Counted from the stretch's first letter, positions 177 through 23,907 are shown. The stretch: 23,907 nt of DNA from Nanobdellota archaeon (GCA_034660355.1 JAYEIZ010000331.1:1-23907); one strand, 5' to 3'. Notes: generated by a model from the letters alone, not told the origin. Numbers and translations are program-made.

Positions 177-569
177 CTATTTCTTAGCCTTATCATTAAA
201 TTTCTTAAAACTTTCAACTAAATCAATCATGTATTTACCTTCTTCCATCTTGAATATTAATGGTTCACCTTTGAATAGATGCACTAAGTCCAGCTCGTAT
301 TTTCCTGGTTTTAGAACTCTGATTGCTTCGAGGTCAAGAACAACAGGTTCATCCTTATCAACCTCGCTGCCAACTAAATCAAAAACGTCTTTTTCTATCT
401 GTTCTTTATCCTCAGGAGTTAGCTTAATGTTAGCAGCTAGCTTTTCGGCTTCTTCTATTTTTTCCTTCCTTACATAGAAAAAGAGTTTACCACCGCATTT
501 ACACCCTTTTATTATTTCAGTAGCTCCATCTTCATAGAATGTACTGCATCTTACACATTGGTGTGGCAT
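177..569 (-). CDS. Archaeal Zn-ribbon protein (DUF2072 / OapC-like)
   Basis: N-terminal CxxC...CxC (C5,C8,C23,C25: HQCVRCSTFYEDGATEIIKGCKCGG). Third gene of the conserved archaeal GTPase-DUF2073-Zn-ribbon trio. The start lies 1 nt after the upstream stop. Confidence 0.7.
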   Translation of the reverse strand: MPHQCVRCSTFYEDGATEIIKGCKCGGKLFFYVRKEKIEEAEKLAANIKLTPEDKEQIEKDVFDLVGSEVDKDEPVVLDLEAIRVLKPGKYELDLVHLFKGEPLIFKMEEGKYMIDLVESFKKFNDKAKK

Positions 570-570
570 T

Positions 571-960
571 TTATTTCTTCTTTTTTGGTTTTATATCCTT
601 AGTAAACAGTTCTATCTTATTGGGATCCTTCTTGATTTGTTTTACCACAGTAGCTGGACCTATTACAGTAAATCCTTGTCTGTCTCCAAGTAACATGTTA
701 ATTACTCCATTTTTGATTCCGTTGAAAAAGCCCTCATCTTTCTTTGGGGGGTTGATAACAGCTAATTCAATTCCTTTGAATTTGTTATCAATCTCTTCCA
801 TTGTTATCTCTATCAGGTCTTTTTCCTCTTCTTCCTTTAATCTTCCCTGTAGTAATACTATTTTGTTCTGCTTTGCTATATCGAGTAACTTATTTACTCT
901 CCTAGCAGGTCCCAGATGCTCTATCTCTGAATACGGAACAAATTGCAAAACTAATCCCAT
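571..960 (-). CDS. Conserved archaeal protein (DUF2073 / OapB-like)
   Basis: 129-aa ORF between the GTPase and the Zn-ribbon gene, with GAGGTG 4 nt upstream of the ATG. The family call rests on synteny and size; I recognise no catalytic motif. Confidence 0.55.
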   Translation of the reverse strand: MGLVLQFVPYSEIEHLGPARRVNKLLDIAKQNKIVLLQGRLKEEEEKDLIEITMEEIDNKFKGIELAVINPPKKDEGFFNGIKNGVINMLLGDRQGFTVIGPATVVKQIKKDPNKIELFTKDIKPKKKK

Positions 961-10397: not shown

Positions 10398-12161
10398 TTA
10401 GCTGCCTTTCCAGGATTCTCTTTTTTTCTCAAAAGTGATTGCCAAATTGTTAATAACCAACTTATTATTTGGACTGAAAGATAAGATTTTCTTAAATATT
10501 TTTATTGCAGAATCGTATTCGCCTTTTGTACCATATATCTCTCCGAGATGGTTACATAGTTCAATATTAGCAGGCTCAACTTCTATTGCCATCTTAAAGA
10601 CATCTATTGCTTCATCATATTTCCCTTGTTTAAATAGGAATATGCCCTTATTCTTATAAGCAATTAAGTTTTCAGAATCTGTTGTTATTGCCTTATCAAA
10701 AAAATCAATGCAACTAGAATCATTTTTCATAGCTAGAAGAACAGCCTTATTCATAAGCGCTTCTGAAGAACTACAATTCAGAATAATCGCTTCATTGATC
10801 AGTTCTAGAGCATCATCAAATTTTTTACTTTTCATCTGAATATGGGCAAGGTTTATCAGATCTTGAACTCCTTTTCCATTATCCATTATCTTTTTTAGCT
10901 CTCCTTCATTATATTGAAATTTAGCTTTTAAGATTCTAACGAATTCGTTAATATGCTGTACATATCTATTTAGTTCTTGTAAACTTTTTTCTTTAGTATA
11001 AAAGATAGTCTCATCTTCTCTTTCCACCCAATCGGAATCATAGATAAATTTTTGGTCTTTTGCCAGCCCATAAATTCCAGTCCCCGGAGTGAGTTGCATT
11101 ACATAAGTAAAGGTAGAAATGGGCTTTGTTTCCTCAATAAGCTTCATGGTTTCTCTGATAGTATCGTCAGTTTCTCCAGGACTGCCTACAATAATAAAAT
11201 AATTGAGATTAAAGCCCAACCTCCTGGTTAATTCTGCAGCCTTTCTTATTTGTTCTATAGTAATACCTTTCTTAAGGTTGTTTAGAATCTTCTGAGAACC
11301 AGATTCTATACCATAGCTTATTGTAACACAACCCGCTTTCTTCATCCAGCGCAATCTATCTTCACAAACCAGATTTACCCTCGACCTACAATCCCAGGTT
11401 ATCTTTAGATTTCTTTTAATAATCTCTTTGCATATATCTATTGTCCTATTCTTATCAAAAGTGAATGTATCATCAGATATAATAAAAGAGGATATATCAT
11501 ATTTTTTATTCAATATTTCAAGCTCATCAACAACATTTTTTGCACTTCTAAGTCTTATCTTTTGCCCCCATAAATTTGGAGTATCGCAAAATACACATCT
11601 GCCCGGACATCCTCTTGAAGTGATTATTCTTTTGTATCTAAAATGATTAGCAGGTATCGGAAGTTCATCAAGATTTTCCAATGGCTCCCTAAAACCATTA
11701 TTAATAATGCCATTATCAAACCTATATGCAATTCCCTTAATGTTTTTAAGAGATCTACCTTCATTTAACTCCTGGACAACATCCAAGAAAGTTATTTCAC
11801 CCTCGTTAAAGACAATAACATCAACATCACCATAGTTCTCCATTAATTGATTGTACATTATAGATGCGTGCGGTCCTCCAAAAATAACTTTTATATCTCT
11901 ATTTATGGTTTTAACTAAGTTAGCGAGCTTAACACAAGTATGCCTATTAAAAGTGTAACACCCTATTCCTATTATATCTGGATTCTTCTCTCTTATTATA
12001 CCCTCACATTCTTTCCAGCCCTTATTTGATAAGCTTAGAATCTCTGTATCTATGTTGTTTTTTAGAAGAAGGGCAGCAATATACCGAAGTCCATTAGGGA
12101 TTATATTCTGTTGAATATTAACTATTAAGGGATTTGTTTTAAATAATAATAAAATCTTCAT
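10398..12161 (-). CDS. B12-binding-domain radical SAM enzyme fused to C-terminal TPR repeats
   Basis: N-terminal Rossmann-like B12-binding region, radical SAM CPGRCVFC (Cx3Cx2C), and about 4 TPR units at the C-terminus (e.g. GKYDEAIDVFKMAIEVEP, GEYDSAIKIFKKILSFSP). Confidence 0.8.
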   Translation of the reverse strand: MKILLLFKTNPLIVNIQQNIIPNGLRYIAALLLKNNIDTEILSLSNKGWKECEGIIREKNPDIIGIGCYTFNRHTCVKLANLVKTINRDIKVIFGGPHASIMYNQLMENYGDVDVIVFNEGEITFLDVVQELNEGRSLKNIKGIAYRFDNGIINNGFREPLENLDELPIPANHFRYKRIITSRGCPGRCVFCDTPNLWGQKIRLRSAKNVVDELEILNKKYDISSFIISDDTFTFDKNRTIDICKEIIKRNLKITWDCRSRVNLVCEDRLRWMKKAGCVTISYGIESGSQKILNNLKKGITIEQIRKAAELTRRLGFNLNYFIIVGSPGETDDTIRETMKLIEETKPISTFTYVMQLTPGTGIYGLAKDQKFIYDSDWVEREDETIFYTKEKSLQELNRYVQHINEFVRILKAKFQYNEGELKKIMDNGKGVQDLINLAHIQMKSKKFDDALELINEAIILNCSSSEALMNKAVLLAMKNDSSCIDFFDKAITTDSENLIAYKNKGIFLFKQGKYDEAIDVFKMAIEVEPANIELCNHLGEIYGTKGEYDSAIKIFKKILSFSPNNKLVINNLAITFEKKRESWKGS

Positions 12162-12261
12162 AATAGGGGGATAGTGTTTTTGTTTAAATTATTTATGTTA
12201 AAATGAATTAATACAAAGATTTTTAAAGTATAACTATTGAAATTCTCGTAGGGAGAATTTT

Positions 12262-12900
12262 ATGAAATACGATCTTCATATACATACGCATTATTCAGCA
12301 TGCTCTATCTTAAAACCTAAGACAATTTTAAAAGTAGCAAAAAAAGCAGGGCTTGATGGGATAGCGGTTAATGATCACAACACTATCAAAGGAGGAGTGG
12401 TTGTTTCTAAGGAGAATAAAGATAAGGATTTTGAGGTTATTCCTGGAATAGAGTTAGCTACGGATAGAGGCCATCTTTTGGGGTTATATGTTAATGAGGA
12501 AATAAAGTCAAGAGATTTCTTTGAAGCAGTTGATAGTATAAGGAAACAAGGAGGATTAGCAATTATTGCCCACCCTTTTAGAATTGTTCCTCATTTAAGA
12601 TCAAATATCAAGTCTATTGATGTTAAGAAACACTTAGATGCTGTTGAGTGTTATAATGCGAGAACTTCATATTTCGGTAATAAATCTGCTATGAAGTTTG
12701 CAGATAAGTTCGATCTAGCTAAAACTGCCGGTTCAGATGCACATTTTTCATTTGAGATAGGTAGGTGTGTTACTAGATTTGATGGAGATATTACTAATGC
12801 TATAAAGAAACAGAAGACTCAGGTGGAGGGCAGCAATGTAACTGGGCTTTTAGGATCTACTTTCAGTTTTTTTGAAAAACATCTTTTAAGGAGGAGATAA
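12262..12900 (+). CDS. PHP-domain metal-dependent phosphoesterase
   Basis: DLHIHTHYS, DGIAVNDHN, IIAHPF, GSDAH: PHP His/Asp metal ligands. The stop lies 1 nt before the carS ATG. Confidence 0.8.
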   Translation: MKYDLHIHTHYSACSILKPKTILKVAKKAGLDGIAVNDHNTIKGGVVVSKENKDKDFEVIPGIELATDRGHLLGLYVNEEIKSRDFFEAVDSIRKQGGLAIIAHPFRIVPHLRSNIKSIDVKKHLDAVECYNARTSYFGNKSAMKFADKFDLAKTAGSDAHFSFEIGRCVTRFDGDITNAIKKQKTQVEGSNVTGLLGSTFSFFEKHLLRRR

Positions 12901-12901
12901 T

Positions 12902-13441
12902 ATGTGGTTTTTTGTGTTGCAGTGCTTTTATTTTATGCTTCCAGCGTATTTTGCAAATATGGCTCCAGTTATAGCTAAGAATTGGTTGAAGTTTTTAGCG
13001 GTTCCTGTTGATTTTGGAAAGAAGGCAGGGGATAGAGAGATATTTGGAAGAAACAAGACATTTAGGGGCTTTGTTTTTGCAGTATTGTTTGCAATATTGG
13101 TAACTTATGCCCAGCTCTTTTTATACAGATTTGATTATTTTAGAAGTCTTAGCTTTGTTAGTTATTCAAATTGGATTTTGTTGGGTTTTTTATTTGGTTT
13201 TGGAGCTCTTTTTGGAGATTTAGCTGAAAGTTTTGTTAAAAGAAGGCTTAGGATAAAATCAGGACAGAAGTTTTTTCCTTGGGATCAGCTTGATTTTGTT
13301 ATTGGCGCTTTGATCTTTGTCAGTATTTTAGTTGACCTAACTTTAAGTTGGATATTAGTTGTTATACTTATCAGCTTTATAGGCCACATTTTAGTAAATC
13401 ACTGTGCATATTACCTAAAGATAAGAAAAGAAAAATGGTAA
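12902..13441 (+). CDS. carS: CDP-archaeol synthase (CDP-2,3-bis-O-geranylgeranyl-sn-glycerol synthase)
   Basis: It aligns by eye along its whole length to A. fulgidus CarS: MLPAYFANMAPV, PVDFGK...FGRNKTFRGF, GALFGDLAESFVKRR, DQLDF, and the C-terminal YYLKIRKEKW. GGAGGAG SD upstream. Confidence 0.85.
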   Translation: MWFFVLQCFYFMLPAYFANMAPVIAKNWLKFLAVPVDFGKKAGDREIFGRNKTFRGFVFAVLFAILVTYAQLFLYRFDYFRSLSFVSYSNWILLGFLFGFGALFGDLAESFVKRRLRIKSGQKFFPWDQLDFVIGALIFVSILVDLTLSWILVVILISFIGHILVNHCAYYLKIRKEKW

Positions 13442-14052
13442 CCTTGATAATATTATTCTCTATTTTGTCGTTATTTGTATTATTTCTTATATTTTATAAG
13501 TTCATCTTTTTAAGAGATCCAAAAAGAGAGTATCTTGAGGGTGATAATATAGTTGCTCCTGCAGATGGAAAGATAATAAATATTATGAATATTGATAAGA
13601 AAAATGTTAGAATAAGAAAAGGATTTTTAGGGAAGGTAAATACTCTTTGTTCTGATGTTATAACAGAAGGGTATTTGATATCTATTTTTATGTCTGTATT
13701 TGATGTGCATGTTAATAGAGCACCTATTGATGGAGAAATTTTATCTGTTAAGCATAAGAAAGGAAAGTTCTTTATGGCTTTTGATATTGAAAAGAGCTTT
13801 CTTAATGAAAGCAACGAAATTATTCTAAAAACAAAAATAGGAAAGATAAAGGTAATACAGATAGCTGGTTTTTTAGCTAGGAGGATACAGTCTTTTGTTA
13901 AGCCGAAGCAAAAGGTTAATAAAGCTGAGAGGATAGGCAGGATAGTATTGGGAAGCCAAGTAAGCTTAATACTTCCTAAGAATGTTAGATTATTGGTAAA
14001 TGTGGGGGATAGGGTTAAAGCTGGAGAGACTTTAATCGCAAAAAATGTTTAG
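13435..14052 (+). CDS. psd: Phosphatidyl/archaetidyl-serine decarboxylase proenzyme
   Basis: FLRDPKRE, APADGKI, FMSVFDVHVNRAPIDG, and a self-cleavage-type LGS near the C-terminus. I chose the ATG at 13435 (the ATGGTAA overlap with the carS stop) rather than 13348, which lies inside carS. Confidence 0.8.
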   Translation: MVTLIILFSILSLFVLFLIFYKFIFLRDPKREYLEGDNIVAPADGKIINIMNIDKKNVRIRKGFLGKVNTLCSDVITEGYLISIFMSVFDVHVNRAPIDGEILSVKHKKGKFFMAFDIEKSFLNESNEIILKTKIGKIKVIQIAGFLARRIQSFVKPKQKVNKAERIGRIVLGSQVSLILPKNVRLLVNVGDRVKAGETLIAKNV

Positions 14053-15091
14053 AAAAAGGTTTAAGATCAAGAATCCTTTTACTTTGCTCTTTTTGAGACT
14101 ACTTTTACCTATAGTTATATTTCTACTGATATTATTTGATAATTATAGGATTGCCCTGTATCTTTTTGTTTTGACTGCTTTTGTTGCCTTTTTAGATGGT
14201 TTCTTATCAAAAAGACTCAAGAGAAAATCTCAATTAAGATCTATATTTGATCCCTTTGCTGATAAATTTCTTATTAATATAATAGCTGTTACTTTATTTT
14301 TTAAGGGCATGCTGCCTTTTTGGGTTATGATTATTTATTTGGGTAAAGATTTATTTGTTGTGTTTGGAGCTTTGTTTATTCTTTTTAAGAATCACAAAAC
14401 AATCTTTAGAACAAACGTTATTGATAAGATATCAGTCTTTATACAGATGTTTGCCCTGTTTGTTGTTTTTATGGGCCGCTTAGATTATATTTTGATATAC
14501 ACTTCAATAATCTTCATTTTAATTTCATTTGTAGTTACTTTATTTAGGTCCGGTATAAGGGTTGTGAGGTATAAAACTGATTTAGAGGAGATAAGATTTA
14601 GGAAATTATTAAAGTTGCCTGACCTTTTTACTTTTTTCAATGCACTTATGGGTTTAAGTGCAATACTTTTCGTTATAAATGGAAGATATACTGCTGCAGT
14701 AATCGCTTTGTTGTTTGCTGTTCTCTTTGATTATTTGGATGGTAAGATAGCAAGACTGATAAAAAGGGAAGGAGATTTTGGCAAACAGTTAGATTCATTG
14801 GCAGACACAATTAGTTTTGGTGTTGCACCTGCAATCCTGGGTTTTACATTAATACAGACTAATTTTGCTGTAATTGTCTTTGCATTATTCTTGTTTGCAG
14901 GGGTTTTGAGATTAGCAAGATATAATATTATGGAGTTTAGCGGCGAGTTTTCTGGGATGCCTATAACAATTAATGGCGTAGTAATACCTTTAATATACTT
15001 TTTTAGTGTTCCTGCTGAGATATATCCTTATATCTATTTGTTCTTAGCAATATTGATGGTCAGCCCACTTAAATTTAAGAAGTCGTTCTAA
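14045..15091 (+). CDS. pssA: Tandem CDP-alcohol phosphatidyltransferase: PgsA-like N-terminal domain fused to archaetidylserine-synthase (PssA-like) C-terminal domain
   Basis: Two copies of the DGx2ARx8Gx3Dx3D spacing. The N-terminal copy is DGFLSKRLKRKSQLRSIFDPFADK (A->S, R->K, G->R; DPxADK is PgsA-like). The C-terminal copy is the canonical DGKIARLIKREGDFGKQLDSLAD (LDSLAD is PssA-like). 348 aa, multi-TM. Confidence 0.75.
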   Translation: MFRKRFKIKNPFTLLFLRLLLPIVIFLLILFDNYRIALYLFVLTAFVAFLDGFLSKRLKRKSQLRSIFDPFADKFLINIIAVTLFFKGMLPFWVMIIYLGKDLFVVFGALFILFKNHKTIFRTNVIDKISVFIQMFALFVVFMGRLDYILIYTSIIFILISFVVTLFRSGIRVVRYKTDLEEIRFRKLLKLPDLFTFFNALMGLSAILFVINGRYTAAVIALLFAVLFDYLDGKIARLIKREGDFGKQLDSLADTISFGVAPAILGFTLIQTNFAVIVFALFLFAGVLRLARYNIMEFSGEFSGMPITINGVVIPLIYFFSVPAEIYPYIYLFLAILMVSPLKFKKSF

Positions 15092-15549
15092 AAGATAAAG
15101 TACAAAGCTATTGTTATTATAATGAAGATAACGCTTTTTAAGATATTAATGAAAGTTTGTTTCTTATCTTTGTTTGTCAATAAACTTCCGGTGGGCAATC
15201 CATATAAGAAGATTAATGAGGATTCTAGAACCCACAAATTTAATATTTTTGAGGACAAATAAAATATTATTGCCAATATGATATAAATATAGATTGATTC
15301 ATTGAATTTAAAATAATTCTTCAATAAATGAATAATTATAAAAGTCAATGTTAGTAAGATTATAATATAATCAATTTTAATATAAATCAATAGGAAAATA
15401 AAAACCAATAATAGAATTATCTTTTGTAACAGAATAAAATATCTCTTTCCTGCTTTTAGCTCTTCTTTTGCTATTATTGCTAAAGCAAATCCTATAAATA
15501 ACCCCAGATAACAGATTATAGCAGTTAGAGAGTAATTTAAGAAATTCAT
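15088..15549 (-). CDS. Hypothetical integral membrane protein (4-5 TM, I/L/F-rich)
   Basis: Uniformly hydrophobic 153-aa ORF. ATGA overlap with the rpiB stop (15546-15549). Confidence 0.55.
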   Translation of the reverse strand: MNFLNYSLTAIICYLGLFIGFALAIIAKEELKAGKRYFILLQKIILLLVFIFLLIYIKIDYIIILLTLTFIIIHLLKNYFKFNESIYIYIILAIIFYLSSKILNLWVLESSLIFLYGLPTGSLLTNKDKKQTFINILKSVIFIIITIALYFIF

Positions 15550-15986: not shown

Positions 15987-16385
15987 TCACTCAATCCTTA
16001 AACTTTTTAAATCTTTTGTTAAACCTGGCACAAAATCATAATTACTGAATTCTTCTTTATCTACCCATTTGAATTCTACATTCTCATGGCAGAGTTTTAC
16101 TTCTTTACTCTCTACTTCGCATAAGTAGACCGCAACAACCCATTTTTTACCTTTTTCTTTATCAATAATCTCGATTATATTTCCTGTTTTTATTATCTTA
16201 GCAGCTAGACCGGTTTCTTCTTTTATCTCTCTAATGCAAGAGTCTTCTGCAGGTTCAAACTCTTTGACAAAACCAGAACAAAAACTCCATTTATTTGGAT
16301 AATTGTAGTCGTTTGGCGCTTTTTTTAGTATTAAGAACTTATCTTTGTTCTTTACAATTCCTGTAACGACAAAATGAGTTTTCAT
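15987..16385 (-). CDS. Nudix hydrolase
   Basis: Nudix box GFVKEFEPAEDSCIREIKEETGL (Gx5Ex7REUxEExGU). I prefer the ATG at 16385 (MKTHFVV...), which forms an ATGA overlap with the upstream stop; the track start is 16406. Confidence 0.8.
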   Translation of the reverse strand: MKTHFVVTGIVKNKDKFLILKKAPNDYNYPNKWSFCSGFVKEFEPAEDSCIREIKEETGLAAKIIKTGNIIEIIDKEKGKKWVVAVYLCEVESKEVKLCHENVEFKWVDKEEFSNYDFVPGLTKDLKSLRIE

Positions 16386-16624
16386 TCCCATTTGCTGTGC
16401 CCCCATTGAATTAGCATATCTGCTTTCTCTTTTAGGTCTGGAGTGTCACAAGCTCCAAAACAAGAATTTAACCAGATAATGACCTTTACATTAGTTTGTT
16501 CTTCTATTTTATCTGTTATTTCCTTTGCTTTTGGTTTTAGACCTTCAGGTAATTGAATGCAGACGGTTTTAGCATTAGATTTCTTTATTTCTTTAATAGC
16601 ATTCTCTAGTTCTAGATTGTACAT
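16382..16624 (-). pseudogene. dph2: N-terminal ~80-aa remnant of diphthamide synthase Dph2 (normal length ~330 aa)
   Basis: AIKEIKKSNAKTVCIQLPEGLKPKAKEI...SCFGACDTPDL...MLIQWGHS aligns with the first ~80 residues of P. horikoshii Dph2 (...GAKRVLIQSPEGL...YGACDPAD...LIHLGHS). It then ends in KWE-stop, and the Nudix gene follows directly. Confidence 0.7.
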
Positions 16625-20706: not shown

Positions 20707-21858
20707 TTATTGTCTTTTACTTAATAGTTTGCCTAGCCGCTCTAAAGGTTCGCCAAGGATGCTTTTTTTGATGTCAATAGCATCATAATTGCATATTTCA
20801 TGACAACAGAAACATCTTATACAGTCTTTTTTATTGATCCATGCAACTTGCTTTTTGCCATATTTTTTTAGGTGAATTGTTTTAGCAGGACATATCCTTA
20901 TACATTCTTGGCAAGCTACACATTTCTTGCTGTTTACTTTGGGTTTTGAGACTATGAGGTTATGTATAATCTCATGTACAAATTTTGGTAACCCAAACTG
21001 AATAGAATTGACTTCAGGATGCTTAAAATTAATCTTTACCTCATCCAGTTTCTCACCAGTGATCTTTATGTTTTCTATGAAATCCTTTTCTTTTAGTCTT
21101 AGACCAACCCTATTTGTCCAGAAATCTAATGGGTTAAAGCTTACTACCTTACACATGACTATATCGAGAGCCAGAGCATCATGAGATGATGCAATCAATC
21201 CAACTTTTTTTGATGTGCCGTTAGTTGGGCCATTGCCTTCCATGCCAAATACTGCATCAATTATGTTAATATTAGGCTTAATGAAGTTATGAACATCTAA
21301 TAGCATCATTGCAAACTTCTCTTTATCAGCTAATTTTAGATGCAACTTACTTTTGTTGAGTCCTGGTATAAATCCAAAGGTGTTTTTTACTGCAAATGTA
21401 ATTCCCATCTGTACGTGTGTTTTTAGCTTTGGAAGATTGATTATGTAATCAACTTCATCAATAATCTTTGCAAAATCGTGCCTTTTTATCAGCATAGCAT
21501 CTTCTATCAGATAGCTTTTCTTATCTGTAAAATCTACAAAAGGAACGTTTTCTTCCTTGCAAACATCCAATATTCCGCAAACTTTAGCAGTGGTTTTAGG
21601 ATCATGAAAACCGGGACCATCACCAACAAAAACATTACATTTCTTTTCTTTCAGAAGTTTTATCACTGCTTTTACGATAGAAGGATGAGTAGTTGTATTC
21701 GTGTTTGGGTGAGATGGCCTTAGTAAATTAGGTTTTATCAAAACTTTAGAATTATCTTTTATCTTTAATCCATCAATCAGTTCAACACTTTTCTTAACAG
21801 CATTGTAGACTTCTTTATCATCATATGAAGAACATTTTACCAGGGATACTTTTTCCAT
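20707..21858 (-). CDS. DUF362-domain protein with C-terminal 2x[4Fe-4S] ferredoxin domain
   Basis: DUF362-like N-terminus (KVLIKPNLL...TTHPSIVKAVIKLLKE...VGDGPG) and two Cys clusters, CVACQECIRICP and CIRCFCCHEICN. Confidence 0.75.
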   Translation of the reverse strand: MEKVSLVKCSSYDDKEVYNAVKKSVELIDGLKIKDNSKVLIKPNLLRPSHPNTNTTTHPSIVKAVIKLLKEKKCNVFVGDGPGFHDPKTTAKVCGILDVCKEENVPFVDFTDKKSYLIEDAMLIKRHDFAKIIDEVDYIINLPKLKTHVQMGITFAVKNTFGFIPGLNKSKLHLKLADKEKFAMMLLDVHNFIKPNINIIDAVFGMEGNGPTNGTSKKVGLIASSHDALALDIVMCKVVSFNPLDFWTNRVGLRLKEKDFIENIKITGEKLDEVKINFKHPEVNSIQFGLPKFVHEIIHNLIVSKPKVNSKKCVACQECIRICPAKTIHLKKYGKKQVAWINKKDCIRCFCCHEICNYDAIDIKKSILGEPLERLGKLLSKRQ

Positions 21859-21915: not shown

Positions 21916-23907
21916 TTAAATAAAAAGCGGTAGGAAAACTAACGCTATGATTGAGATTAGTTTAATGAGTATGTTAAGGGCCGGAGAGCTTGTATCTTTG
22001 CAAGGGTCCCCTACGGTGTCTCCGATAACTGCTGCTTTATGGGCGTCGCTTCCTTTACCACCAAAATGACCTGCTTCAATATATTTCTTAGCATTATCCC
22101 ATGTAGCACCGGCATTAGCCATAAACACAGCCATTAAAAATCCAACAACTGTTGCTCCTGCGAGTAATCCCCCAACAGCCTCTACCCCTAAAAATATACC
22201 TACTAAAATAGGTGTAACTAATGTTATTAAAGTGGGAAGTATCATCTGTTTTAGTGCAGCCCCAGTTACAATTGAAACGCATTTTTCGCTATCTGGCTTT
22301 GCCTTTCCCTGCATCAGCCCTTTTATCTGCTTAAACTGCCTTCTAACCTCCTGAACAATACTCTCTGCAGCTCTTCCTACTGCCTTCATGGCCAGAGCTG
22401 AGAAGACAAAGGGTAACACTCCACCTATGAACAATCCGATAATAACCGTGGGTGTTGTTATATCAATTACAGTTGCTTTTCCTGTTAATTGTGCAGCTAC
22501 TTGTGTGAAAGATGCAAATAACGCTAAAGCAGTTAATCCAGCTGAACCAATAGCAAATCCTTTTCCTATTGCTGCTGTAGTATTCCCTATAGCATCCAGC
22601 CCTTCACACCTTTTTCTTGCATTCCCGCCTAGTTTTGCCATCTCTGCAATCCCTGCAGCATTATCTGCAACAGGGCCATAACAATCTGTAGCTAAAGTTA
22701 TACCTAAAGTTGAAAGCATACCAACAGCTGCAATTGCAATTCCATATAGCCCTGAAAAATGATATGATACATAAATTGCAAGGCAGATAGTTAAAACTGG
22801 TATTAATGTAGAGAACATACCAACAGATAAGCCTTGAATCAAATTAGTTCCTGCTCCAGTCTGTGCTGCTTCAGCAACCTCTTGAGTTGGCTTTTTATGG
22901 TCAGATGTATAATACTCTGTAGAGAGCCCAATTATTATCCCACCAACAAGTCCAGCAAGCATAGAATAAAAAACACCTAAGCCGTGAGAGTTAGGAATAA
23001 TGTATCCTATGACAAAGAATGATAAGATTGCCATAATAACAGAAGCGCCCCATATTCCTTTATCTAATGCGTGTTGTGCTTTTCCTTTAGTAACCCTAAC
23101 AAAGAATGTTCCAATTATTGAAGATAGTATGCCGAGGCCAGCTAAGATTAAAGGCAAAATAACATATCCTTTATCTATCTTTGTTGCTATACCTAAGATT
23201 GTAGTACCAATGACCATTGCTGCAATTATAGAATCAACATAACTCTCAAAGAGATCTGCTCCCATTCCGGCTATGTCGCCAACATTATCTCCTACATTAT
23301 CTGCAATTACTGCAGGATTTCTTGGGTCGTCTTCTGGGATGCCTGCTTCTACCTTTCCAACAAGATCAGCTCCAACATCAGCAGCTTTTGTAAAAATTCC
23401 TCCACCAACCCTTGCAAAAAGGGCAATTGATGAAGCGCCAAAACCGAATCCATAGATTATATTTGGGTCGCCAAATATTAAGTAAAGAAGTGTAACTCCT
23501 AGCAACCCTAGACCAACAACACATAGCCCCATAACTGTGCCTGAAGAAAAAGCGATATTCAATCCTTCATTTATGGATTTCTTAGATCCTTCAGTTGTTC
23601 TAGCATTTGCTTTTGTGGCAATTCTCATCCCAATATTTCCTGCAACTGCAGAGAATACTGCTCCAATAACAAATGCCATTGCAATATTAGACCCAATAAA
23701 AAAATACAAGGCAATAGCAACAACCAATGCAAATACTGCCAGTATTTTATACTCTTTACTGAGAAAAGTCATAGCCCCCTTATGGATAAGCTCAGAGAGC
23801 TCCTTCATCTTCTCATTTCCAGCAGATTTTCTCATTACACCTATACCTTTATGTAATGCAAATAACAAAGATAACACACTAATCCCAAGTATTACATATA
23901 ATATCAT
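21916..23907 (-). CDS. hppA: Membrane-integral ion-translocating pyrophosphatase (V-PPase), K+-dependent type
   Basis: DNVGDNVGDIAGMGADLFESY, GNTTAAIGKGFAIGSA, DNAKKYIE, GDTVGDPCKDTSSPALNILIKL. The ORF begins with an ATG exactly at the window edge, so the N-terminus may be complete or slightly truncated. Confidence 0.9.
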   Translation of the reverse strand: MILYVILGISVLSLLFALHKGIGVMRKSAGNEKMKELSELIHKGAMTFLSKEYKILAVFALVVAIALYFFIGSNIAMAFVIGAVFSAVAGNIGMRIATKANARTTEGSKKSINEGLNIAFSSGTVMGLCVVGLGLLGVTLLYLIFGDPNIIYGFGFGASSIALFARVGGGIFTKAADVGADLVGKVEAGIPEDDPRNPAVIADNVGDNVGDIAGMGADLFESYVDSIIAAMVIGTTILGIATKIDKGYVILPLILAGLGILSSIIGTFFVRVTKGKAQHALDKGIWGASVIMAILSFFVIGYIIPNSHGLGVFYSMLAGLVGGIIIGLSTEYYTSDHKKPTQEVAEAAQTGAGTNLIQGLSVGMFSTLIPVLTICLAIYVSYHFSGLYGIAIAAVGMLSTLGITLATDCYGPVADNAAGIAEMAKLGGNARKRCEGLDAIGNTTAAIGKGFAIGSAGLTALALFASFTQVAAQLTGKATVIDITTPTVIIGLFIGGVLPFVFSALAMKAVGRAAESIVQEVRRQFKQIKGLMQGKAKPDSEKCVSIVTGAALKQMILPTLITLVTPILVGIFLGVEAVGGLLAGATVVGFLMAVFMANAGATWDNAKKYIEAGHFGGKGSDAHKAAVIGDTVGDPCKDTSSPALNILIKLISIIALVFLPLFI

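Follow-up and report, generated by a model that had tools for sequence, protein, structure and literature searches.

A short PHP-family protein encoded beside membrane-lipid genes in archaea: a tentative candidate for a lipid phospho-alcohol phosphatase

We analyzed a 23,907-nt stretch of DNA from a Nanobdellota archaeon (GCA_034660355.1, JAYEIZ010000331.1:1-23907; "the window" below means this whole stretch), which carries a compact four-gene operon at 12262-15091. The operon encodes a PHP/PHP_C-domain phosphoesterase (hereafter the PHP protein), the CDP-archaeol synthase CarS, the archaetidylserine/phosphatidylserine decarboxylase Psd and a tandem CDP-alcohol phosphatidyltransferase (CAPT). 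We found that genes for homologues of the PHP protein recur beside membrane-lipid genes in DPANN archaea and, with another partner enzyme, in distant archaeal phyla. On the strength of this genomic association, the PHP protein is a reasonable though tentative candidate for a phosphomonoesterase acting on lipid-linked phospho-alcohol phosphates. The source organism is a Woesearchaeota/Nanoarchaeota-type DPANN archaeon. Domain identities were decided throughout by Pfam gathering scores and NCBIfam equivalog cutoffs.

As the original prediction described, the four genes lie on the same strand and their junctions are, in order, a 1-nt gap, a 7-nt overlap and an 8-nt overlap. Our open reading frame (ORF) calls agree with this exactly, the start of Psd being taken as the ATG at codon 30 of the mechanically listed TTG ORF. 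Locus L081, from a close relative with 73% identity in the PHP protein, keeps both the 1-nt gap and the 7-nt overlap. Tight gene spacing is usual in archaeal operons, and the non-trivial feature here is the recurrence of the gene set across many genomes, not the spacing.

The synteny sample came from a scan with one genome per species, which yielded 80 loci (L-numbers); their genes were called and clustered, and the clusters were annotated. There were 54 usable DPANN loci and 24 non-DPANN loci. A gene was counted as lipid-type if it belonged to a predefined set, and the neighborhood was taken as within three genes of the PHP gene. By this measure 43 of the 54 DPANN loci have a lipid-type gene near PHP, so the linkage to carS and pgsA that the original prediction had proposed to look for is indeed recurrent. 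CarS was adjacent to PHP in 22 of the 54 loci and within three genes in 32, a PgsA-type CAPT in 15 and 23, and a PlsC-like acyltransferase in 11 and 15. The Psd-linked tandem CAPT, which joins a degenerate N-terminal half to PssA, was adjacent once and within three genes in 20 loci, and a 153-aa membrane protein that we call TM153 was adjacent in 4 and within three genes in 24. At least five local arrangements, among them PHP>CarS>, PgsA< PHP>, PHP> PgsA< and PHP> CarS<, keep PHP beside a lipid gene.

The PgsA-type genes near PHP are of two kinds, either single-domain (173-185 aa) or a second tandem CAPT of about 345 aa. The latter is usually divergent from PHP across a gap of about 40-60 nt, carries canonical motifs in both halves, and has a true PgsA as its N-terminal half (TIGR00560, 182 bits, cutoff 109); it was found in L022-L027, L032-L034, L041, L043, L050, L052, L054 and L063. 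The commonest layout is Psd-(N-methyltransferase)-[pseudoPgsA-PssA]> <[PgsA-X] PHP> ... CarS> <TM153 <RpiB. In the clade of the window, Psd and the PssA fusion have been relocated behind CarS, and PgsA is not nearby. As a separate observation, the PlsC-like gene (PF01553, H(x)4D) lies directly downstream of PHP, convergent and often with a 4-nt overlap (L015, L021, L022, L025, L026, L028, L033, L034, L052 and others). Finding such a gene in a head-group cluster is a hint that these archaea may carry out ester-lipid or lyso-lipid chemistry.

Outside DPANN, 10 of the 24 loci have a PHP homologue (38-48% identity) within three genes of a UbiA-family enzyme, which passes the decaprenyl-phosphate phosphoribosyltransferase equivalog NF008977 (271 bits, cutoff 234). 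These loci come from Methanobacterium, Methanobacteriaceae, Archaeoglobi, a 'Halobacteria' bin and an unclassified archaeon, and from four Asgard archaea (Heimdall-, Hod- and Promethearchaeota; L062, L065, L077, L078). The order UbiA-PHP-flippase-like (LPG_synthase_TM)-DUF362, with gaps of -28 to 74 nt, was observed in L056, L067, L069, L072, L074 and L079, with an additional GT87 glycosyltransferase gene in L072. In the Asgard loci, PHP is convergent with EamA and UbiA. The operon of UbiA, PHP, flippase-like and DUF362 genes looks like an uncharacterised polyprenyl-phospho-sugar pathway.

A UbiA enzyme of the decaprenyl-phosphoribose-5-phosphate (DPPR) synthase class makes polyprenyl-phospho-ribose-5-phosphate, from which a dedicated phosphatase removes the 5-phosphate in mycobacteria. 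The archaeal arrangement resembles the mycobacterial decaprenyl-phosphoribose pathway in that the PHP gene sits directly downstream of UbiA, where a 5-phosphate phosphatase would be expected; it differs in that the mycobacterial phosphatase is a PAP2 membrane protein, whereas the archaeal candidate is a PHP protein. Since the products of PgsA and of DPPR synthase share a lipid-P-alcohol-P architecture, a single phosphomonoesterase chemistry would explain both genomic contexts.

The PHP protein passed the Pfam models for PHP (37.4 bits, cutoff 26.4) and PHP_C (49.7 bits, cutoff 21.3). All NCBIfam models stayed below cutoff, the best being a generic CehA/McbA metallohydrolase domain (75 bits vs 80). 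Against the RNase RNM model the score was 54.6 bits vs 375, and against the 3',5'-bisphosphate phosphatase model 50.5 bits vs 400 (NF047791 and NF041577, cutoffs 375 and 400). The metal motifs are all present, namely the N-terminal HxH, the bridging Glu, the mid-barrel His and the C-terminal DxH, and the site comprises D4, H6, H8, C14, D38, H39, E64, H104, E129, N132, R134, D159 and H161. Conservation was read over 79 homologues (55 DPANN and 24 non-DPANN), among which D4, H6, H8, D38, H39, E64, H104, E129, N132, R134, N140, D159 and H161 are invariant apart from one H6Y; E129, N132, R134 and N140 are family-specific. Residue 14 (window 12301-12303), the third metal-site ligand, is Cys in all 55 DPANN members and Asp in 18 of the 24 non-DPANN members. 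This looks like a metal-ligand swap, and the Cys may change metal preference or confer redox sensitivity.

The AlphaFold model of the PHP protein (predicted local distance difference test, pLDDT, 92.7) matched the distorted (beta/alpha)7 PHP barrel in Foldseek with probability 1.00 and template modelling (TM) scores of 0.60-0.71, ranging from the RNase AM PHP domain (0.60) to TM0559 and PsfC (0.71). A profile search of PDB sequences gave weak matches only, to 3e0f, RNase AM (7ug9, 9etk), TM0559 and PsfC, and its alignment jumps from residue 84 to 185 in 3e0f and from 92 to 180 in 7ug9, skipping an insertion domain of about 100 residues. TrpH, RNase AM (YciV) and Cv1693 are thus the best PDB matches by both sequence and fold, and share with the PHP protein the (beta/alpha)7 barrel, the N-terminal HxH, the bridging Glu, the C-terminal DxH and PHP_C. 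However, TrpH and RNase AM are proteins of about 290 aa with an inserted helical domain, some 80 aa longer than the 212-aa window protein; the ligand at position 14 is Cys in all DPANN members of the PHP subfamily; and the genes of this subfamily neighbor those for membrane-lipid enzymes rather than RNA or nucleotide genes. TM0559 (2anu) and PsfC (7rty) are, like the window protein, short stand-alone PHP proteins of similar size, but only 18-20% identical to it. To our knowledge, TM0559 has no assigned function, and we know of no lipid context for TM0559 or PsfC.

Judged by sequence and predicted fold, the PHP protein is a member of a distinct short PHP subfamily and not a TrpH/RNase AM orthologue. 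The outcome that the original prediction had named as fatal to it, grouping with TrpH/RNase AM and no recurrent lipid linkage, is not what we observed: the insertion domain is lacking, the scores fall far below cutoff and the linkage recurs. A profile search of 1.84 billion representatives returned 1156 family members at E<=1e-30. The only multi-domain members are PHP-SAM methyltransferase, ATP-grasp fragment-PHP and PHP-PHP proteins (P0400, P0466, P0453, P0405); the first of these fusions makes up two clusters, and a subsurface metagenome is the source of the one annotated as a ubiquinone O-methyltransferase. At the C-terminus, all members have a short tail, hydrophobic and then basic, which was modelled at low confidence and gives a weak hint of membrane contact.

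The other three enzymes of the operon are ordinary. CarS (NF003114, 154 bits, cutoff 148; PF01864, E 8e-38) and Psd (NF003685, 201 bits, cutoff 183; PF02666, E 4e-45) both passed, and LGSQ near the C-terminus of the translated Psd would be its self-cleavage-type G-S site. Residues 187-346 of the tandem CAPT pass the PssA model TIGR00473 (124 bits, cutoff 107). This C-terminal half reads DYLDGKIARLIKREGDFGKQLDSLAD, the canonical DxxDGxxARx8GxxxDxxxD, with D229, D232, G233, A236, G246, D250 and D254 invariant in 50 homologues. In the AlphaFold model of the tandem protein (pLDDT 80, predicted TM score 0.74), the C-half matched the Methanocaldococcus jannaschii phosphatidylserine synthase (7pow/7b1k, 32% identity). 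With all three enzymes passing curated cutoffs, the originally proposed CarS-PssA-Psd route to archaetidylethanolamine holds: CarS would convert archaetidic acid into CDP-archaeol, from which the tandem CAPT, through its C-half, would make archaetidylserine for Psd to decarboxylate to archaetidylethanolamine. The window thus encodes all three enzymes of the known archaeal pathway, but differs from it in that PssA is fused behind a degenerate PgsA-like domain, that the cluster is headed by a PHP gene, and that the host lineage reportedly lacks the upstream steps of geranylgeranylglyceryl phosphate synthase (GGGPS) and digeranylgeranylglyceryl phosphate synthase (DGGGPS). In related loci (L022, L023, L025, L027, L034, L039, L041, L043, L052) we also noticed a small SAM methyltransferase gene between Psd and the PssA fusion. 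Its best matches, both below cutoff, are OlsG (ornithine-lipid N-methyltransferase) and PmtA (phospholipid N-methyltransferase), and its position suggests N-methylation of archaetidylethanolamine.

The original prediction assigned the synthesis of archaetidylglycerol-phosphate (AGP) to the N-terminal half of the tandem CAPT. The motif argues against that assignment. Residues 7-168 resemble PgsA below threshold (TIGR00560, 81 bits, cutoff 109), and Foldseek matched this half to Staphylococcus aureus PgsA (7drj, 22% identity). The half reads AFLDGFLSKRLKRKSQLRSIFDPFAD, in which the signature D1xxD2G1xxARx8G2xxxD3xxxD4 takes the form AFLDGFLSK..R...D...D. Across 22 Psd-linked fusions from other genomes, D1 is A, S, G or T in all and never Asp, G2 is always R, K or H, the x8 spacer carries deletions of 1-3 residues, and D2, G1 and D3 are variable. 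In 50 database homologues, D4 (D73) is the sole invariant motif residue, compared with all seven in the C-half. The N-half has conserved residues of its own (F41, F49, P91, Q134, D147), so it is under selection. These features suggest that the N-half is probably a non-catalytic pseudo-domain, most likely a built-in structural pseudo-dimer partner of the PssA half. The fusion in L013 has a fully canonical N-half, which suggests that the tandem protein descends from an active PgsA-PssA fusion.

It could be argued from the PgsA fold, from PgsA being the best family match, from the D2, G1, D3 and D4 residues still present in the window clade and from the canonical L013 relative that the N-half is an active, unusual AGP synthase, in which case the operon itself would supply a phosphatase substrate. 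We consider this quite unlikely, given the loss of D1 and G2, the shortened spacer, the lone invariant D73, the sub-threshold score and the separate true PgsA in many relatives. The window operon would make CDP-archaeol, archaetidylserine and archaetidylethanolamine, and AGP probably is not made by it. As the CarS, PssA and Psd steps require no phosphatase, the argument for one from within the operon fails. The PssA-fused degenerate PgsA-like domain appears new in the literature searched, and neatly illustrates how a membrane transferase can contain a pseudo-enzyme domain.

What is left of the proposal that the PHP protein is a missing phosphatase is therefore the part that rests on its family and its neighbors, the rationale specific to the window having fallen with the degenerate N-half. 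We suggest that the PHP protein may act at the cytoplasmic membrane face, removing the terminal phosphate of lipid-linked phospho-alcohol phosphates. In Woesearchaeota the enzyme would act on AGP and possibly archaetidylinositol-phosphate (AIP), supplied by a PgsA-type enzyme encoded separately, and elsewhere in the archaea on polyprenyl-phospho-ribose-5-phosphate from the neighboring UbiA enzyme. The window would have retained the pairing of PHP with CarS, the substrate-forming PgsA being presumably encoded elsewhere. The broader idea, that the short PHP/PHP_C family is the missing archaeal lipid phospho-alcohol phosphatase (for AGP and/or AIP, and for polyprenyl-phospho-ribose-5-phosphate), perhaps together with TM153, is possible but in our view doubtful.

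Phosphatidylglycerol-phosphate (PGP) phosphatases have been invented several times, as PgpA, PAP2, HAD and PTP enzymes. The reaction proposed here is identical to that of PgpA, PgpB (PAP2), PgpC/PgpP/Gep4 (HAD) and PTPMT1, but the PHP protein is not homologous to them: Pfam and NCBIfam scans of it revealed no relation to PgpA (PF04608), PAP2, HAD or PTP PGP phosphatases. In agreement with the original remark that the archaeal AGP phosphatase has not been firmly identified, a review from 2022 gives no archaeal enzyme for dephosphorylating AGP or AIP; it describes the phosphatidylinositol-phosphate phosphatase as unidentified, the bacterial one included, and mentions that AGP can be a substrate of E. 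coli PgpA (PMC9385802). The principal PGP phosphatase of Firmicutes, PgpP (YqeG), was recognised as such only in 2025; it is a HAD enzyme that is soluble and attaches peripherally (PMC11804483), so there is precedent for this step being carried out by a protein that is not integral to the membrane. The window PHP protein is likewise predicted to be soluble, at most peripheral. Our literature search found no link between a PHP protein and PGP or AGP, or archaeal UbiA, and the cross-phylum association of the short PHP subfamily with makers of lipid-P-X-P intermediates appears new in the literature searched. If active on AGP, the PHP protein would add a further, non-homologous class of PGP-type phosphatase and another independent origin of this activity, and its gene is a cloneable candidate for the archaeal AGP/AIP dephosphorylation step. 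The operon is relevant, too, to membrane building or remodelling in genome-reduced DPANN archaea, as relatives reported to be without core ether-lipid synthases yet retain CarS, PssA and Psd.

Several observations weigh against a lipid phosphatase. The window operon has no active-looking PgsA, and none lies within 10 kb of PHP in L081, the sole close relative examined so far out. No predefined lipid-type gene was found within three genes of PHP in 11 of the 54 DPANN loci (in 2 of these 11, a GDPD gene, after PHP in L048, or a divergent PAP2 gene adjoins it) and in 14 of the 24 non-DPANN loci. Some of the non-DPANN loci are glycan- or small-molecule-like clusters with ATP-grasp, polysaccharide deacetylase, GT2 or B12 radical SAM genes, and the family's own fusions fit such clusters rather than lipid enzymes; no fusion to CarS, CAPT or UbiA was seen among the 1156 family members. 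RpiB and NUDIX genes are nearly as syntenic with PHP in DPANN, so lineage gene-order inertia explains part of the linkage there. A few clusters contain a PAP2-family gene, an alternative phosphatase. No lipid enzyme was among the Foldseek matches, and the nearest solved structures are nucleotide or RNA phosphoesterases. The C-terminal tail does not qualify as a classical amphipathic membrane helix, its hydrophobic moment being too low in DPANN (0.15-0.25, compared with 0.55-0.6 in non-DPANN members).

These structural neighbors (3e0f/3o0f, RNase AM 7ug9 and 9etk, and Cv1693, 2yb1) raise the question of whether the PHP protein is an unrelated housekeeping nucleotide phosphoesterase, such as a pAp phosphatase or an RNase AM-like 5'-3' exonuclease, whose lipid neighbors reflect inherited gene order. 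The TrpH label given to relatives by JGI, the similar synteny of RpiB and NUDIX, and a DHH/DHHA1 neighbor at L016 would agree with this. We judge it improbable, because the TrpH insertion domain is lacking, the scores of 55 and 51 bits are far from the cutoffs of 375 and 400, and the membrane-lipid linkage recurs in distant phyla, with another partner enzyme and through several rearrangements. A role in clearing soluble by-products appears very unlikely. CarS and the DPPR-synthase-like UbiA, the most frequent partners, both release pyrophosphate, the latter from phosphoribosyl pyrophosphate, and PHP domains were originally proposed to be pyrophosphatases, so that removing pyrophosphate (or another soluble by-product) might pull both reactions forward. 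But the window already encodes an H+-pyrophosphatase (21916-23907), the adjacency to PgsA would go unexplained since CAPTs release CMP, and we know of no characterised stand-alone PHP pyrophosphatase.

A further alternative takes up the original suggestion that the operon might serve head-group remodelling of scavenged lipids. The PHP protein could be a diesterase, phospholipase D- or C-like, that strips host-scavenged ether lipids to archaetidic acid, which CarS would then re-activate. No other adjacency is as tight or as frequent as PHP followed by CarS on the same strand, diesterases such as RNase AM are known in the PHP superfamily, and in L048 the gene after PHP is the GDPD gene. In addition, four metagenome-assembled genomes (MAGs) of Woesearchaeota subgroup J, namely YT1_182, Yap2000.bin4.8, YT1_767 and MP5_5_87, were reported to have the methylerythritol phosphate (MEP) pathway and neither GGGPS nor DGGGPS (Huang et al. 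2021, PMC8421398), which would leave CarS without a de novo substrate. These MAGs correspond to L009, L008, L006 and L005, respectively. L005 and L006 share the gene order of the window (PHP identity 66-69%), so a CarS without de novo substrate is plausible for the window organism as well. The scavenging idea thus gains support from relatives, but the missing synthases could reflect MAG incompleteness. Moreover, head-group stripping leaves unexplained the UbiA/flippase operons of the lipid-autonomous Methanobacteriales and Archaeoglobi, and the PHP family has no known lipid diesterase; we regard head-group stripping as unlikely. The preferred assignment, to a phosphomonoesterase, covers both the CAPT-linked and the UbiA-linked contexts.

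TM153 has about five transmembrane helices, and its gene is convergent with the operon, its stop overlapping the last stop of the operon by 4 nt. We found 149 homologues, and wherever an organism is named it belongs to Woesearchaeota/Nanoarchaeota. Residues E29 and E30 never vary, and K32 hardly does. In most loci TM153 lies within one or two genes of CarS or PHP, and in L018, L020, L024 and L036 it is directly upstream of PHP on the same strand. Scanning 18 members against Pfam gave no hit, even at E<=1, and NCBIfam gave none either; TM153 is not recognisable as PgpA or PAP2 in these scans. TM153 is a possible membrane partner of the PHP protein, and this lineage-specific partner appears new in the literature searched.

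The features of the operon region are collected in Table 1. A 100-nt A/T-rich spacer precedes the PHP gene, in which a TATA-like TTTTTAAAG at 12220-12228 and GGGAG at 12251-12255, 7 nt ahead of the ATG, may serve as promoter and ribosome-binding elements. Divergent from the operon, on the minus strand at 10398-12161, is a gene for a 587-aa protein with B12-binding, radical SAM and TPR domains. We considered this protein as a possible modifier of lipids, but its matches were all sub-threshold (HpnJ, ladderane-type lipid radical SAM, BchE), and L081 lacks the gene at the equivalent place, GatC being the gene directly ahead of PHP there. The gene is therefore a local insertion, not a partner conserved with the operon.

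Table 1. Features in and around the operon (positions in the window)
Feature	Position	Strand	Size and basis
Putative promoter/ribosome-binding region	12220-12261	+	read from the sequence, putative
PHP/PHP_C phosphoesterase	12262-12900	+	212 aa; Pfam, NCBIfam, AlphaFold (AF2), Foldseek, synteny
CDP-archaeol synthase CarS	12902-13441	+	179 aa; PF01864, NF003114
Archaetidylserine/phosphatidylserine decarboxylase Psd	13435-14052	+	205 aa; PF02666, NF003685
Tandem CAPT	14045-15091	+	348 aa; two CDP-OH_P_transf stretches
Tandem CAPT N-half, PgsA fold with degenerate motif	14045-14578	+	TIGR00560 below cutoff, motif comparison, Foldseek
Tandem CAPT C-half, predicted archaetidylserine synthase	14579-15091	+	TIGR00473, motif, Foldseek
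TM153 membrane protein	15088-15549	-	lineage-restricted family, linkage to PHP and CarS

The window has a G+C content of about 32%, and its remaining genes are archaeal housekeeping genes, including those for OapB/OapC, HerA, an Mre11-like protein, GatCAB, the RNase P subunit Rpr2, PGK, H+-pyrophosphatase, RpiB and NUDIX. The OapC and OapB genes lie at the left end (177-960, minus strand) beside a GTPase gene, and a replication origin may be located nearby. An 80-aa ORF at 16382-16624 (minus strand) matches only the N-terminal 56 of the 302 positions of the Diphthamide_syn model. Its equivalent, of 79-86 aa, is kept in 25 related loci and was gene-called in L081. Either a conserved mini-protein or a split Dph2 is possible. 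Finally, the gene at 20707-21858 (minus strand) encodes a DUF362 protein fused to a 4Fe-4S dicluster domain. DUF362 recurs near PHP homologues both within and outside DPANN (L030, L036, L056, L061, L067-L069, L072, L079), and in L030 the DUF362 gene sits between PHP and CarS.

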